Source: Patescibacteria group bacterium
Lineage (GTDB): Bacteria; Patescibacteriota; Minisyncoccia; Minisyncoccales; PEYH01
Assembly: GCA_034722415.1 (NCBI GenBank)
Contig: JAYENY010000006.1
Span: forward strand, 1-45,806
Reading direction: 5' to 3'
DNA length: 45,806 nucleotides
Shown here: positions 3,624 to 28,883 of the stretch, piece by piece
Layout of the letters: each line of letters starts with the position of its first letter
Numbering within the stretch: the first letter of the stretch is position 1
Notes under the pieces: generated by a model
Told to the model about the DNA's origin: nothing
The model's database searches: none
Seen by the model: only the letters and a program-made list of their open reading frames with translations
Program-made: the position numbers and the translations under genes

Positions 3624-5366
3624 TTAATTTAATATTGCTTTAATTCTTCTAATGCCCGAACCTATTGACTCTTGTTTAATAATTTTAAATCTCCCAAGGT
3701 GTCCTGTCTTATTAGCGTGTGGCCCAGCACAGATCTCTTTAGAGAAATCATTTATTGAATAAACACTCACCCTATTTGGATATTTCTCTTTAAAAAATGA
3801 CAAAGCTCCATCTTGAATCGCTTCATCAAGTTCTAATTCTTCTTTCTTAATTTCTAAATTCTCCCTTATCTTTCCATTAATTAAATCTTCTATGTCCGCT
3901 ACTTCTTGATCAGTTAATTTTCTATCAAAAGAAAAATCAAACCTTAATCTTTCGCTCGTAATATTAGAACCCATTTGTTTAAGACTATCTGTTAAAATTT
4001 TTCTTAATGCAGCGTGTAAAAGATGCGTAGCAGTATGAAGTTTTATCGCTTGTTCATTCTGGTCTTCCTTACCAAGGCCACCGAACTTTTTCTCTGCTCC
4101 AACTCGAGAAATCTTTTTGTGCTCTTCTTGTAGTTTATAGAAATCTTCTATATTTTTTACCTCCTTAGAATCATCTTTTGCCCAAGACAAGCTAACTTCT
4201 AGTGGCACGCTATGAGTAGAATATAGATTAAAAATTGCTTTTCCAGTTAATTCCGTCAATTTATCATATTCTTTCCTGCCTGCTTTTATGGATGAAAAAA
4301 ATGTATCCTCTTCTTTTTGTATAACTGTCAAAATATCTTGCTTCTTACTCTCAAGCTCGGGATAAATATCTTTATAAATTTCAATTACTTTTTCTGCTAC
4401 ATCTGTTAAAAGACTCTCGCCCCCATCTATTGATTTCTTACACCTTATTGCTTTCCTTAATAATCTCCTTAAAACGTATCCTTTGTCAACTTTGGATGGC
4501 ATTATGCCTTCGCTTATTAAAAAACATGACCCCTTAATATGATCCGCAATAATTCTTACTTCTTCAATTTTTTTATCATTACCAATTATATTAATAAGTG
4601 ATTCAAATAAATCTGTTTCAAAAATTGTCTCCTTGCCCTGACTTGCGGCAGCTAATCTTTCTAATCCTAGGCCGGTATCAATTCCTTTTTTACCCCCCTT
4701 ATCTTCTATGGGGAATACTTTTTTATTCGCATCCTGATAATATTCATTAAAAACTAAGCTCCAGAGCTCAACAAATCTTCCGCAATTACATCCAAATACA
4801 CACTTTTCTCCTTTCTCGCAAGGATTATCTTTTAGCTCAAAATAAATATCTATTGTTGGCCCGCAAGGCCCCTCTGTTCCAGTAGGTCCCCAGAAGTTAT
4901 CTTCTCGTCCCATAGGGACAATCCTTTCTTTTAAAATATTATTACTAATCAGGATCTCTTTGGATTCGATATCTTCTGGTGCTTCTGAATCTCCTCCAAA
5001 ATAGCTAAACCACAGTTTATCTATTGGTAAATCACAATTCTCAAGAAAAAACTGAAGTGCTAATTTAACTGTTTCTTCTTTAAAATAATCATTGAAACTG
5101 AAATTGCCAAGCATCTCGAAAAAAGTAAGATGACTGTCATCTCCAACATCATCAATATCAGAGGTTCTTAAACATTTTTGACAACTTGCCGTTATTTTCC
5201 CAAATGGTGATTCTTTGTCTAAATAATATGGTTTAAATTGTTGCATTCCCGAGGTGGTAAAAAGGACTGATGGATCGCTAGGAATTAACGAAAAGGAAGG
5301 CACTATTTTGTGTCCTTTTTTTTCAAAAAAATCGAAAAATTCTTTACGAAGAGAATTAGATTTCAT
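3624..5366 (-). CDS. alaS: alanine--tRNA ligase, short form lacking the C-terminal (C-Ala/DHHA1-like) domain
   Basis: Track ORF 3624..5396. I prefer the internal ATG at 5366 (MKSNSLRKEFFDFFEKKGH..., the typical AlaRS N-terminus), which also removes the overlap with the upstream gene. The editing-domain motifs HTATHLLH and CAGPH are present near the C-terminus. Confidence 0.9.
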   Translation of the reverse strand: MKSNSLRKEFFDFFEKKGHKIVPSFSLIPSDPSVLFTTSGMQQFKPYYLDKESPFGKITASCQKCLRTSDIDDVGDDSHLTFFEMLGNFSFNDYFKEETVKLALQFFLENCDLPIDKLWFSYFGGDSEAPEDIESKEILISNNILKERIVPMGREDNFWGPTGTEGPCGPTIDIYFELKDNPCEKGEKCVFGCNCGRFVELWSLVFNEYYQDANKKVFPIEDKGGKKGIDTGLGLERLAAASQGKETIFETDLFESLINIIGNDKKIEEVRIIADHIKGSCFLISEGIMPSKVDKGYVLRRLLRKAIRCKKSIDGGESLLTDVAEKVIEIYKDIYPELESKKQDILTVIQKEEDTFFSSIKAGRKEYDKLTELTGKAIFNLYSTHSVPLEVSLSWAKDDSKEVKNIEDFYKLQEEHKKISRVGAEKKFGGLGKEDQNEQAIKLHTATHLLHAALRKILTDSLKQMGSNITSERLRFDFSFDRKLTDQEVADIEDLINGKIRENLEIKKEELELDEAIQDGALSFFKEKYPNRVSVYSINDFSKEICAGPHANKTGHLGRFKIIKQESIGSGIRRIKAILN

Positions 5367-18909: not shown

Positions 18910-19554
18910 TTATTTTAGAAAAGTATCTTTAATTGTTTTGATTGATTCTTCTGATAAAATTAGATATTTAAAAGAAAGAATATCTAGAATATTTAAATTG
19001 CGAGCTTCTATAAGCTCAACTCCTGGGATATTTTTAATTGCCTTTAAAAGAACGTCGTCTTTTTTCGGAACAACAATAAGAGAACTTTTAAGGGCTTCTT
19101 TTTTCATCTTTTTTAATAAATTATTTAAAAGATTATAAAGAATCTTTGTTTTTGGTTCTTCGATTGAAATCTTGTCAATAACTAATATTTCATTATCGTT
19201 GGCTTTAGCGGAAAGCGCGGAAAATAGCGCTGCTCTTCTCATATTTTTAGGAATAACCTTCTTGTAATTCCTATCGTTTCTAGGGCCAAATGTAATTCCC
19301 CCACCCTTCCATATGGGCGATCTACTTGAGCCATGTCTTGCTCGCCCAGTTCCTTTTTGTCTCCATGGTTTTCGGCCTCCACCTCGAACCTCTCCTTTAT
19401 TTTTTGTGTGAGCTGTTACCTGTCTTTTATTTGATTGCATACTAACAACCACCTGATGTATTAAATCTGGATTAAAATCTTTTTCAAAGATTTCTTTAGG
19501 CAGTTTTACTTGCCCTATTTTCTCGCCTTTTTGGTTGTATGTATTGACATTCAT
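18910..19554 (-). CDS. rplD: 50S ribosomal protein L4
   Basis: Track ORF of 214 aa. RGGGRKPWRQKGTGRARHGS motif. Confidence 0.95.
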   Translation of the reverse strand: MNVNTYNQKGEKIGQVKLPKEIFEKDFNPDLIHQVVVSMQSNKRQVTAHTKNKGEVRGGGRKPWRQKGTGRARHGSSRSPIWKGGGITFGPRNDRNYKKVIPKNMRRAALFSALSAKANDNEILVIDKISIEEPKTKILYNLLNNLLKKMKKEALKSSLIVVPKKDDVLLKAIKNIPGVELIEARNLNILDILSFKYLILSEESIKTIKDTFLK

Positions 19555-19572
19555 GGTTTAATTTGGTATGAT
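19544..19572 (+). promoter_or_regulatory. near-consensus sigma70 promoter of cassette B (TTGACA-N17-TATGAT with extended TG)
   Basis: TTGACA at 19544-19549, just downstream on the plus strand of the rplD start codon (19552-19554, opposite strand). A 17-nt spacer ends in TGG. TATGAT at 19567-19572. Confidence 0.6.
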
Positions 19573-19600
19573 ATAAATATCTCATCGGGAGGTGAAGATA

Positions 19601-19777
19601 ATGCGAGTAGTTATCATTCATGCATGTTTGTCGGCGCTAGCAATCTTTGTAACAGGAACACTCATTCACTGGATTACAGGGTCGATTGCATGGGCTTCTA
19701 CCACAGGAGTTACTGTTCTGGTCTTGGCGGGTCTAGATTTTTGGCGCAGGATCCAGAACGGACAGGTGTATATGTGA
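19601..19777 (+). CDS. 58-aa two-TM small membrane protein encoded antisense inside the S10 operon (cassette B)
   Basis: Track ORF 19592..19777 with a GTG start. I prefer the ATG at 19601, 8 nt after GGGAGG (19587-19592). The sequence is MRVVIIHACLSALAIFVTGTLIHWITGSIAWASTTGVTVLVLAGLDFWRRIQNGQVYM. Two hydrophobic stretches. A promoter upstream and a hairpin plus T7 run downstream. Confidence 0.6.
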   Translation: MRVVIIHACLSALAIFVTGTLIHWITGSIAWASTTGVTVLVLAGLDFWRRIQNGQVYM

Positions 19778-19788
19778 TACGCATCTCA

Positions 19789-19842
19789 CACCTCGCACAT
19801 CGCGCATCGAAGGCCACAAGGCTAGAGGTGCGCACTTTTTTT
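19789..19842 (+). terminator. putative intrinsic terminator of cassette B
   Basis: GCGCA(19802-06)...TGCGC(19829-33) stem, or alternatively CACCTC(19789-94)/GAGGTG(19825-30). An inner GGCC-ACAA-GGCT hairpin. Followed by a TTTTTTT run (19836-42) that overlaps the rplC stop codon on the other strand. Confidence 0.5.
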
Positions 19843-20431
19843 ATCCTCTAATCTCTAATAACGTTCCTCTCCTTCCTGGAATTGCCCCTTTTATGGCAAT
19901 CTGATTTTTTTCTTTATTAATTTGTATAATTTCTAAATTTTTAACTGTTATTCTATCTACCCCCATCCTCCCAGGCATTTTCCTTCCTTTTATAACTCTT
20001 TGAGGATAAGCTGATCCAATAGATCCAATTCTTCTCTCTCCGTGTTTTACTCCATGTCCTTTTCCAAATCCGTGAAATCCCCATCTTTTTACTCCACCCT
20101 GAAATCCTTTTCCCTTGGAAATCCCTGTTACAATCACATTGTCTCCCTCTTCAAAAGCTTCTGTATTTATTATATCTCCAATCTTTAATTCAAATTCTTT
20201 AACCTTAAATTCTTTTAAATATCTATATGGTCTTGTTTTATTTGTTTTTTTAATTTTCTTTTCTTTTAGCTTTTCAAATCCAATCTGGATTGCAGAAAAT
20301 CCGTTATCATCTTGCTTTTTTATTTCTGTAACAAAACAGGGGCCTGCTTCAACTAAGGTTACAGGAATTACTTTATTTTCTTTCCAAATCTGAGACATCT
20401 CTATTTTTTTGGCTAGTATAAACTTACTCAT
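19841..20431 (-). CDS. rplC: 50S ribosomal protein L3
   Basis: Track ORF 19841..20455. I prefer the start at MSKFILAKKIEMSQIW (20431), which resembles the canonical L3 N-terminus. Confidence 0.93.
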   Translation of the reverse strand: MSKFILAKKIEMSQIWKENKVIPVTLVEAGPCFVTEIKKQDDNGFSAIQIGFEKLKEKKIKKTNKTRPYRYLKEFKVKEFELKIGDIINTEAFEEGDNVIVTGISKGKGFQGGVKRWGFHGFGKGHGVKHGERRIGSIGSAYPQRVIKGRKMPGRMGVDRITVKNLEIIQINKEKNQIAIKGAIPGRRGTLLEIRG

Positions 20432-20489
20432 TTTTTTATAATTCTTCAGCAACAATTCGTAATATTTCTTTGAAACAAAATACCGGGCG

Positions 20490-20584
20490 CTAACCCGACA
20501 TTTAATGTTTGACGAGGGTTAGTATCCAGTTATTTTAACTGTTGGATATCGTTTTTCATATTTCAAGAACACATTTGGTGTTCT
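20490..20584 (-). other. three tandem stem-loops in the unusually long rpsJ-rplC spacer
   Basis: Plus-strand coordinates. CTAACCC(20490-96)/GGGTTAG(20516-22) with an inner ACAT/ATGT pairing. TATCCAGTT.../...AACTG-TT-GGATA (20523-20548). AGAACAC/GTGTTCT (20566-20584). The spacer is about 160 nt, where rpsJ and rplC usually nearly abut. Confidence 0.4.
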
Positions 20585-20594
20585 GGACTTGACC

Positions 20595-20933
20595 CTAAAT
20601 TTTAATTTGAATATCTACTCCTGTTGGTAGATTTAAGTTAGTCAACGATTCAACTACTTTTTGATCAGATTTTAAAATATCAATCAGTCTCTTGTGCACT
20701 CTAACTTCAAACTGTTCTCTTGCGTCTTTATGAACAAAGCTAGAACGATTAACTGTATATTTGTGAATTTCTGTTGGTAATGGAACTGGTCCACAGATTT
20801 CAGCGCCGTAACGTAAAACTGTCTCAACTATTTGTCGAGCGCTTTTATCTAATACCTTATTATCATAAGCCTTAAGCTTAATTCTAATCTTAGGTAATGA
20901 TGTTTCTGTCTTTTCCTTCGTTTTTGTAGCCAT
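20595..20933 (-). CDS. rpsJ: 30S ribosomal protein S10
   Basis: Track ORF of 112 aa. [14 protein letters not shown] motif. Position after tuf. Confidence 0.95.
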
Positions 20934-28359: not shown

Positions 28360-28413
28360 ATTAATCTTCTTATTAATTATTCTTATCCTTTATCTTAACA
28401 TGATTTAAATAAT

Positions 28414-28477
28414 AAAAAATCCAACCTTGCGGTTGAAAAAAATTGAAGGGGCCAAGACTATAGTCCTAGCTCCCTTC
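28414..28477 (-). terminator. two tandem intrinsic terminators ending cassette C
   Basis: Minus strand reads GAAGGG-A-GCTAGGAC-TATA-GTCTTGGC-C-CCTTC then AATTTTTTT. This is followed by CAACC-GCAA-GGTTG then GATTTTTT. Confidence 0.7.
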
Positions 28478-28486
28478 GTATTGTTC

Positions 28487-28642
28487 CTAACTCGTTGCGT
28501 CAGGAAGCCTATCTCTAATCGTGAGCGGTTCATGCCCAGATCTCTGCATTCTAACGCGGCGAAGATATTCGAGCCACCTGGCTTCCCGATCTTTTTTAGC
28601 ATTAGTCACCGCTGAAATCTTAGCGCAACCTGCTGCCTTCAT
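28487..28642 (-). CDS. 51-codon basic small ORF (cassette C), coding status uncertain
   Basis: Not in the track. My translation is MKAAGCAKISAVTNAKKDREARWLEYLRRVRMQRSGHEPLTIRDRLPDATS. GAGGGAGGG (28651-28659) lies 8 nt upstream of the ATG (28640-28642). The stop TAG is 10 nt before the terminator stem. Confidence 0.4.
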   Translation of the reverse strand: MKAAGCAKISAVTNAKKDREARWLEYLRRVRMQRSGHEPLTIRDRLPDATS

Positions 28643-28848
28643 TAATACCACCCTCCCTCGATCTCCTTAAACTCCGAACTAATTCAGAGACTAAGGAAAT
28701 ATAGAGAGGAGAAGGTGGCGCCATTGCTTGCCACCTTCTCCGAACAGGGCTCTCAACCCATGGGAACAATCGGAGAAAAATTATTTTAACTTTCCTTCGA
28801 TTGCTCCCGGAGGGAGGAGCAATCATTGTGAAATGTACTAGAGAGTAC
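28643..28848 (-). ncRNA. approx. 200-nt G+C-rich structured leader, or the 5' part of an unclassified ncRNA (cassette C)
   Basis: Minus-strand hairpins: GTACT-CTCT-AGTAC; ATTGCTCC-[TCCCTCCG]-GGAGCAAT; a perfect 11-bp GAGAAGGTGGC/GCCACCTTCTC stem that competes with TTCTCCG/CGGAGAA; and AAGGAAA/TTTCCTT. The loop CCTCCCTC is complementary to the downstream SD GAGGGAGG. Confidence 0.4.
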
Positions 28849-28854
28849 ACCAAT

Positions 28855-28883
28855 ACCATATCATACTCTCTCTAGCTTGTCAA
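28855..28883 (-). promoter_or_regulatory. putative promoter of cassette C (TTGACA-N17-TATGGT with extended TG)
   Basis: Minus-strand TTGACA at 28878-28883, just upstream of the stop codon (28872-28874) at the 3' end of the HIT gene. TGA-TATGGT with the -10 hexamer at 28855-28860. Confidence 0.5.

Follow-up and report, generated by a model that had tools for sequence, protein, structure and literature searches.

A candidate small membrane-peptide gene lying antisense in the rplC-rplD spacer of a patescibacterial S10 operon

In the S10 ribosomal-protein operon of a Patescibacteria group bacterium (contig JAYENY010000006.1, 45,806 nt, analysed at its whole length and called the window below), the spacer between rplC and rplD carries an expression unit on the strand opposite to the operon, with an open reading frame (ORF) for a hydrophobic peptide of 58 residues. 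This unit, which recurs in further lineages of the Candidate Phyla Radiation (CPR), is very probably a real protein-coding gene. By sequence comparison it is a member of an unannotated, conserved but dispensable small membrane-protein gene family that, in a CPR clade, lies antisense within the S10 operon. We regard as evenly poised between right and wrong the wider reading that the spacer holds an independently transcribed gene for a membrane peptide of ~58 residues, nested antisense, probably silenced by read-through of the operon and similar to a type I toxin.

An antisense expression unit in the rplC-rplD spacer

The window is part of the str/S10/spc ribosomal-protein cluster of an AT-rich CPR (Patescibacteria) member, and all genes of the 45.8 kb lie on the minus strand, opposite to the unit described here. 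For L4, the nearest proteins are found in metagenome-assembled genomes that carry the labels Patescibacteria, Parcubacteria, Kuenen-, Buchanan- and Magasanikbacteria. Between rplC (L3; 19841-20431, minus strand; Pfam Ribosomal_L3, E 9e-68 being the value for L4 and 2e-15 that for L3; start picked by an independent gene call) and rplD (L4; 18910-19554, minus strand; Pfam Ribosomal_L4; also called as a gene in an independent assembly) lies a spacer of 286 nt (19555-19840, both strands). It is a compositional island with a GC content of 0.47 versus 0.33 in its flanks. An earlier sequence-only reading of this DNA had held that the two genes normally nearly abut, which proved correct: in ~30 other CPR relatives they overlap or stand 5-75 nt apart, with one at 123 nt, and in the closest genome sampled, L001 (L4 88% identical to that of the window), the spacer is 22 nt. 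The extra sequence has been inserted or retained relative to such close relatives. The spacer is identical in a second, independent assembly of this strain (Logan SRR26901924), which differs by one mismatch in 6,002 nt, sited elsewhere; this rules out an assembly artefact.

The first codons of rplD supply the -35 element of the peptide promoter: TTGACA is found at 19544-19549 on the plus strand, inside codons 2-4 (N-V-N). The extended -10 element TGgTATGAT (19564-19572, plus strand; TG at 19564-19565, TATGAT at 19567-19572) follows at a distance of 17 nt. The promoter scores 11/12; a two-strand scan of 10 kb contained only one other site of at least 11/12, and the peptide promoter alone had the TG. 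Downstream are the ribosome-binding site GGGAGGTG (19587-19594, plus strand), the GGAGG core of which ends 8 nt ahead of the ATG, and the ORF of 58 codons (19601-19777, plus strand, with ATG at 19601 and the stop codon at 19775-19777; MRVVIIHACLSALAIFVTGTLIHWITGSIAWASTTGVTVLVLAGLDFWRRIQNGQVYM). An intrinsic terminator closes the unit at 19802-19842 on the plus strand, where the hairpin GCGCATC...GGTGCGC (19802-19833; -18.7 kcal/mol, z -5.2) is followed by T7 (19836-19842), the last two T overlapping the rplC stop codon (19841-19843). In the operon sense the hairpin is weaker (-12.8 kcal/mol) and without a U tail. The predicted peptide mRNA of ~264 nt (19579-19842, plus strand), its start placed from the position of the -10 element, would consist of a 22-nt 5' untranslated region (UTR), the ORF and a 65-nt 3' UTR. 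Compared with shuffled sequences, folding gave z = -3.0 for the plus strand and z = -1.3 for the operon-sense strand. The peptide unit is confined exactly to the rplC-rplD spacer, reaching into rplD codons 2-4 with its -35 and into the rplC stop with its T-run. The sequence-only reading had described this 286-nt spacer as carrying a complete plus-strand expression unit, from TTGACA, the 17-nt gap with TG and TATGAT, through GGGAGG, the ATG and a 58-residue ORF, to a hairpin and T7 overlapping the rplC stop; all of these elements are present where it had placed them.

The hydropathy profile of the peptide, with a grand average of hydropathy (GRAVY) of 1.03, shows two hydrophobic segments, at approximately residues 3-25 and 29-48; its C-terminal tail is basic. 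The most likely form suggested by this profile is a helical hairpin in the membrane. The ORF stands out in composition, its GC content and GC at third codon positions (GC3) of 0.47 and 0.45 being ~5 standard deviations away from the 0.347 and 0.249 of the window's genes. It is also the only plus-strand ORF of 30-100 residues in the window that is both hydrophobic and preceded by a strong ribosome-binding site. ORFs of such length arose in ~8% of shuffles, and in 4-11% per instance across all carriers of the unit.

Two minor features overlap or adjoin the unit on the same strand. A TTG-initiated plus-strand frame of 113 codons (19510-19851) spans the spacer in another frame and enters rplC antisense; it is without a ribosome-binding site, not hydrophobic and unconserved in the other carriers, and is most likely spurious as a gene. 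A second hairpin with a T-run (ATTGCCCCTTTTATGGCAAT CTGATTTTTT; 19881-19910, plus strand) is located ~40 nt past the peptide terminator, likewise antisense to the operon, within the 3' coding region of rplC, and is built from conserved rplC codons (in L043: 2184-2152, minus strand). It might act as a back-up for terminating antisense read-through, or simply be a by-product of the rplC coding sequence.

The unit recurs in other CPR lineages

Five carriers of the unit at the rplC-rplD junction were found, namely the window and the relatives' loci L041/L042, L043, L019 and L051. In L043, where L4 is 89% identical to that of the window, the spacer is 278 nt, the -10 element TATCAT (promoter 11/12) and the ORF 56 residues, already called as a gene by the Joint Genome Institute (JGI). 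The locus L041/L042 (L4 90%) has 262 nt up to a duplicated rplD 5' fragment, with an ORF of 51 residues and the -10 element TATAAC (promoter unscored), weakened by the absence of the final T. The more distant carriers L019 (L4 61%) and L051 (L4 58-68%) have spacers of 275 and 295 nt, -10 elements CACAAT (10/12) and TATAAT (12/12), and ORFs of 55-57 and 52 residues, respectively. In all five, the -35 element is a perfect TTGACA drawn from rplD codons 2-4, the -10 element with its TG begins exactly 17 nt after it, and a strong ribosome-binding site precedes the ATG at the same position. Equally, all five ORFs, of 48-58 codons, contain two hydrophobic stretches (GRAVY 0.8-1.4) and would be expected to insert into the membrane. 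The carriers have 3' UTRs of 63-85 nt with a hairpin of -12.7 to -20.7 kcal/mol, then T6-7 running into the rplC stop codon, and share the terminator loop CC-[A/G]CAA-GG.

An analogous unit was located one gene upstream in L056/L057 (L4 62% identical to the window), where rplC and rplD overlap and the 410-nt spacer between rpsJ and rplC instead carries antisense signals (L056 534-943, L057 195-404): TTGACT, 17 nt with TG, TATCAT, AGGAGG and ATG. Its ORF of 69 residues (MKVPSIYVIGTGLCVLGALAAIIMGAVPKLDPRMFWLGVSIYGCLIIAGMVEVFRTKPSPEKKPKADDA) has two hydrophobic segments and is followed by a hairpin GCGATC..GATCGC, and its promoter adjoins the rplC start codon. Of these six ORFs (the five at rplC-rplD and the rpsJ-rplC analogue), JGI had previously called two, in L043 and L057, as genes, and each of these forms a singleton cluster among ~15 billion proteins. 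The other four had never been called, and small genes in 'impossible' places of this kind are systematically missed.

The claim of an autonomous gene antisense to the S10 operon is borne out by this comparison, with promoter, ribosome-binding site, ORF and terminator recurring in five lineages. Five occurrences by chance are very unlikely because an ORF this long appears in only 4-11% of shuffles at each instance, and the return of the complete, ordered set of signals in four further lineages is more than chance.

The reading frame is under purifying selection

From the promoter block to the T-run, the DNA of the five carriers barely aligns, the promoter and terminator being the best-conserved parts. 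Despite this divergence, the carriers have in common the frame and its length, the ribosome-binding site and the hydrophobic character of the peptide. The sequence-only reading had proposed to look for codon-level conservation on the plus strand, with an RNA structure kept in the absence of the frame as the contrary outcome. The opposite of that outcome was found: the frame is kept in all five carriers while the DNA is largely unalignable.

The sole alignable pair, the window and L041, allowed the codons to be compared directly. Their peptides are 56% identical (tblastn E ~2e-14) and share HA.LS.LAI, LI.W.T.SIA, TGVT and LAG.DFWRR. Over 51 aligned codons, the proportions of synonymous and nonsynonymous differences (pS and pN) were 0.67 and 0.30, giving a ratio of nonsynonymous to synonymous divergence (dN/dS) of ~0.22; 11 codons differ only synonymously, and the other five frames are worse or closed. 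These values indicate that the reading frame is under purifying selection. At the protein level, the rate of change of the peptide is nevertheless 4-7 times that of the neighbouring ribosomal proteins (dN 0.38 vs 0.05-0.10), and the window and L043 peptides are ~30% identical while their L4 proteins are 89% identical. Synonymous divergence between the carrier lineages ranges from 0.6 to more than 1.7. The peptide dS of 1.7 is comparable to that of the flanking rplW (1.6); we considered it as a sign of allelic replacement and set this aside as undiagnostic, the value being within the rplW range.

Gain, loss and exchange at the junction

A neighbour-joining tree was built from L3 and L4 together (401 columns). 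The window, L043 and L041 were mixed with the non-carriers L001, L048 and L049 in one tight clade, L019 and L051 formed a sister pair, both carriers, and the L052-L057 loci made up a separate clade. The rplC-rplD spacers of the close non-carriers are 14-22 nt long. In L049 the empty site is AAAAAGAG joined to TACCAAATTAAATT, that is, the A-run with the beginning of the terminator stem, fused to half of the -10 element and the promoter spacer. The empty site of L045 reads AAAAGTGC joined to ATTAGATTAAATT, and that of L048, like the right-hand junction of L041, AAAAGC joined to ATTA[G/A]ATT. With both ends of the unit retained, these empty sites look like deletion scars, and on this resemblance repeated loss from an ancestral occupied state is the more parsimonious history; insertion into a pre-existing spacer is less so. 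TTGACA is intact in only one of the four close non-carriers (L048) and decayed in L001, L049 and L045. Since it is perfect in 5/5 carriers, the pattern fits selection on the promoter for as long as the unit is present. On this distribution the unit is to be seen as a dispensable, accessory gene.

The junction has also received other cargo. In L041 (1291-2500; also in L042), the operon strand has a HepT/MNT toxin-antitoxin pair (PF01934/PF18765) inserted between the peptide unit and rplD. The pair is bordered by a 23-codon duplicate of the rplD 5' end (1553-1621) and by a second copy of the rplC 3' end, which supplies the last HepT codons and the stop (LEIRG*). The duplications suggest Campbell-type single-crossover integration of a circle that carried a copy of the junction. 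The rplC-rplD junction is therefore a variable hotspot in the lineage that accepts accessory toxin-antitoxin cargo.

A further observation concerns rplD of L019 (2746-3390) and L051 (2501-3268), in which the first 45 L4 residues resemble those of the window unusually closely (84% vs 54-63% for the rest of the protein). Among ~120 L4 proteins compared with that of the window in this N-terminal part, these two are the top outliers (z 3.9 and 2.7). Recombination carrying the rplD 5' end along with the unit could account for this, or else a lineage effect, which is possible because non-carrier L4 proteins (P0025 and P0033 in the homologue search; the L052-L057 loci) are also high.

A possible antisense switch

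No terminator-like site was found on the operon strand within the spacer. Together with the lack of a conserved internal rplD promoter, this leads us to infer that transcription of the operon reads through the unit. As to such a promoter, the -10 region is near-palindromic, and the peptide -10 is overlapped on the operon strand by TTCACC-17-TATCAT, a weak match of 9/12 (window 19555-19572 / 19596-19568, minus strand); an rplD mRNA begun there would have a leader of ~7 nt only. This site was rejected as a conserved feature, since sites of 9/12 only are present in the window and L051 and there is none in L043, L019 or L041.

In this layout, RNA polymerase coming from rpsJ and rplC would have to cross the unit to reach rplD and the downstream genes, as in a noncontiguous operon. 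The footprint of the peptide promoter would cover the rplD start, and the two transcription units would converge over ~264 bp. Heavy transcription of the operon would be expected to occlude the antisense promoter, dislodge open complexes and cause polymerase collisions, and the peptide mRNA, perfectly complementary to the operon mRNA over ~264 nt, would be a substrate for double-strand-specific RNase. Production of the peptide would then be limited to periods of low ribosomal-protein transcription. In the other direction, the peptide promoter, when it fires, would damp rplD and the downstream genes, so that inhibition would be mutual. We consider such mutual exclusion of peptide and operon expression somewhat probable.

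The least certain step is the nature of the product, which may be a dispensable, type-I-toxin-like membrane peptide, tolerated because the operon transcript would act as its antisense antitoxin. A toxin without an antitoxin of its own could persist only where a strong antisense transcript pre-exists. The patchy presence of the unit, the scar alleles, the fast divergence and the HepT/MNT pair at the L041 junction are circumstantial pointers to a toxin-like or accessory nature, to which small size, hydrophobicity and a near-consensus promoter may be added. Toxin-like action of the peptide is, in our judgement, conceivable at rather less than an even chance. The regulatory logic put forward in the sequence-only reading plausibly fits the architecture, the toxin function itself being suggested by analogy. 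The fullest version describes an undescribed family of antisense-embedded membrane peptides in S10-operon spacers (rplC-rplD and rpsJ-rplC) that forms a type I switch devoid of an antitoxin gene, the operon mRNA being the silencer; a drop in ribosome synthesis would unleash a peptide causing growth arrest or dormancy, and promoter firing would throttle rplD and the downstream genes. We hold such a switch to be possible but less likely than not.

If it were true, inverse coupling of ribosome production to a membrane-active peptide would be hard-wired without a dedicated regulator, providing a minimal toggle between growth and dormancy in tiny-genome bacteria whose physiology is poorly understood. 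Type I toxin-antitoxin logic would be extended to an essential housekeeping mRNA as the antitoxin, and ribosomal-protein operons would join the short list of documented noncontiguous operons. The rplC-rplD junction of this lineage is cheap to screen.

Comparison with known systems

Noncontiguous operons and excludons contain a gene in the opposite orientation inside an operon whose transcript crosses it, as in the S. aureus menE-menC-MW1733-ytkD operon and the Listeria excludons (PMC11034616, PMC7154746). The plus-strand peptide unit between minus-strand rpsJ, rplC, rplD and rplW has this structure, and the layout predicts that each transcription unit shuts out the other by transcriptional interference and RNA-duplex cleavage. 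It differs from them in its host, a CPR S10 operon, in the tiny embedded gene fitted exactly to a spacer, in a promoter that uses codons of the downstream gene and in a terminator that overlaps the upstream stop; co-transcription across the unit is here a prediction.

Type I toxin-antitoxin systems (hok/sok, tisB/istR-1, fst/RNAII, txpA/ratA, bsrG/SR4, aapA/isoA) resemble the unit in their hydrophobic peptides of <60 residues with a strong promoter of their own and a structured mRNA, and in full overlap with a convergent antisense transcript, which here would be that of the operon. Patchy occurrence, rapid turnover, repeated loss and, in L041, a toxin-antitoxin neighbour are further likenesses. 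Unlike them, the unit has no dedicated small antitoxin RNA; the antisense role would instead fall to the transcript of an essential ribosomal-protein operon. No sequence match to the described type I toxin families (Hok, Ldr, TisB, Fst, Ibs, ShoB, TxpA and others) was obtained with Pfam, NCBIfam or PADLOC. Class II holins and pinholins (two transmembrane segments, ~65-95 residues) are likewise small, with two hydrophobic segments and a charged C-terminus, a likeness of topology only; the peptide is shorter and without phage or lysis-gene context. There was no holin match in PHROGs or Pfam, the viral-contig scan and blastn against phages gave nothing, and the neighbours are ribosomal-protein genes. 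Of the type I toxin-antitoxin or holin-like logic that the sequence-only reading had proposed, the antisense layout and the small hydrophobic ORF therefore stood, whereas no toxin or holin family and no phage context came to light. The HepT/MNT (HEPN/nucleotidyltransferase) pair of L041 occupies the same rplC-rplD junction, but this protein-protein system is encoded on the operon strand, bears no sequence relation to the peptide and does not occur in the window. A search of a limited literature collection returned no paper on an antisense gene in the rplC-rplD spacer or on type I toxins in Patescibacteria.

Evidence against the toxin-like reading and rival explanations

Several results weigh against an antisense-silenced, toxin-like membrane peptide. 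Classic type I toxins have one hydrophobic segment, so that the two seen here are atypical. AlphaFold, run on the single sequence without an alignment, returned one long helix with a predicted local distance difference test (pLDDT) score of 94, which leaves the topology undecided; of the 'two-TM peptide' (TM, transmembrane) claimed earlier, the two hydrophobic stretches are upheld by hydropathy, while this model has a single helix. No dedicated antitoxin RNA was found at the locus, nor a separate operon-strand promoter conserved across carriers, and the only antisense RNA available would be the putative read-through transcript of the operon. In their minimum-energy folds, three of the five carrier transcripts pair the ribosome-binding site with the 3' UTR, reminiscent of the sequestration by a 3' anti-Shine-Dalgarno sequence known for hok and aapA1, but shuffled 3' UTRs pair at least as well, and the pairing is not counted as evidence. 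As proof of common descent, the terminator loop CC-[A/G]CAA-GG also fell away, being present in an unrelated terminator of the window (~28425-28441). The L043 peptide gave only a marginal match to that of the window (E ~0.04-0.08 in a tiny database; shared core H-x-[IV]-T-G-S-[IF]...T-G-[VI]-[TS]-V), and the L019 and L051 peptides showed no significant similarity to it. These two may be much diverged, or independent occupants of the same site.

Homology searches point the same way. A word-indexed search of 5.8 billion proteins yielded no real homologue of the peptide, and phmmer against 1.84 billion representatives found only two spurious matches to repetitive proteins of 912 and 710 residues. 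No model in Pfam, NCBIfam or PADLOC matched at threshold, the best being DUF3021 (E 0.02, below the cut-off), and the best PHROGs match was a family of unknown function at only E 0.35. Other searches were also negative: a profile from four of the peptides recovered nothing beyond the L043 product itself, neither scanning metagenome and viral contigs by back-translation nor running blastn against phages and plasmids gave anything relevant, and an exact look-up of the peptide sequence found no record. Rfam had no match at gathering thresholds over the whole window, and only chance-level ones at E up to 10 (19400-20700).

The same gene in the same antisense layout might instead encode a harmless small membrane protein, such as a modulator of stationary phase or stress, timed inversely to ribosome synthesis and free of toxin-antitoxin logic. 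All of the evidence for a coding gene applies equally to this explanation, and noncontiguous operons often embed ordinary genes (PMC11034616). It also agrees with the failure of every toxin or defence model to match, with a pair of hydrophobic segments that is uncommon among type I toxins, and with repeated clean loss, which marks the gene as dispensable and non-addictive. It sits less well with the very fast turnover seen between the window and L043, the patchy distribution, the toxin-antitoxin pair adjoining the unit in L041, and a near-consensus promoter directed head-on into an essential operon, a costly site for a routine gene. We hold it to be a credible explanation, though short of probable.

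The remaining alternatives do without a functional peptide. A non-coding antisense RNA, or antisense transcription itself, might tune the rplC/rplD ratio with the ORF incidental; the plus-strand RNA does fold better than shuffles and the promoter and terminator are the best-conserved parts. However, the sequence turnover has in 5/5 units spared a strong ribosome-binding site, the ATG and a hydrophobic frame (48-58 codons), the sole alignable pair has a dN/dS of 0.22, Rfam has no match and no conserved RNA structure is evident in the unalignable interiors, which leaves this improbable. It is also hard to credit that the spacer is an operon-sense cis-regulatory leader of rplD, for example an L4-binding autoregulatory structure, with coincidental antisense signals. 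Such leaders are frequent in ribosomal-protein operons, and rplD here is without a ribosome-binding site and uncoupled from rplC; yet the operon-sense fold is unremarkable, Rfam is again silent, the spacer is absent from the closest relatives, its interior is unconserved among carriers and the ordered antisense signals recur five times. The GC and GC3 outliers, the patchy presence and the recombinogenic junction with its duplicated rplD 5' and rplC 3' ends in L041 would suit a decaying, now functionless relic of an inserted mobile element or foreign DNA fragment. Against such a relic, the unit is intact in five lineages over the synonymous divergence given above, with its frame under purifying selection; neither repeats, a transposase nor further copies occur in the window or the relatives' loci, and no phage or plasmid matched, so that a relic is very improbable.

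Other features of the cluster

The spacer between rpsJ and rplC (window 20432-20594, operon minus strand) contains a conserved block, GGATACTAACCC ... ATGCCGGG-TTAG..-CCCGGTATTTTGT. Across the relatives the block is present and the spacer is 84-213 nt long (L041 562-699; L043 1428-1631; L044 1220-1432; L047 1757-1888; L049 1755-1887; L051 1432-1632; L052 851-934). The block had no match in Rfam. RNAalifold predicted a 9-bp hairpin followed by a U-rich tract, and an upstream CTAACCC can pair with GGGTTAG, allowing alternative terminator and antiterminator pairings. The block is a candidate attenuator or ribosomal-protein leader after rpsJ.

In the ENA contig of L049, no rplB is called between rplW and rpsS, where a gap of 644 nt (3704-4347) stands in the position of the ~820-nt rplB of other relatives; a frameshift or an assembly problem may be responsible.

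Finally, the window has a 512-nt gap of raised GC (0.43) at 28360-28871 on the minus strand, for which Rfam gave no significant match. It is accompanied by a TTGACA...TATGAT-like promoter at ~28882-28855 and contains a strong ribosome-binding site GGGAGGGTGG, a basic ORF of 51 residues (28642-28487; MKAAGCAKISAVTNAKKDREARWLEYLRRVRMQRSGHEPLTIRDRLPDATS) and two terminator hairpins, one of them with a CCGCAAGG loop.

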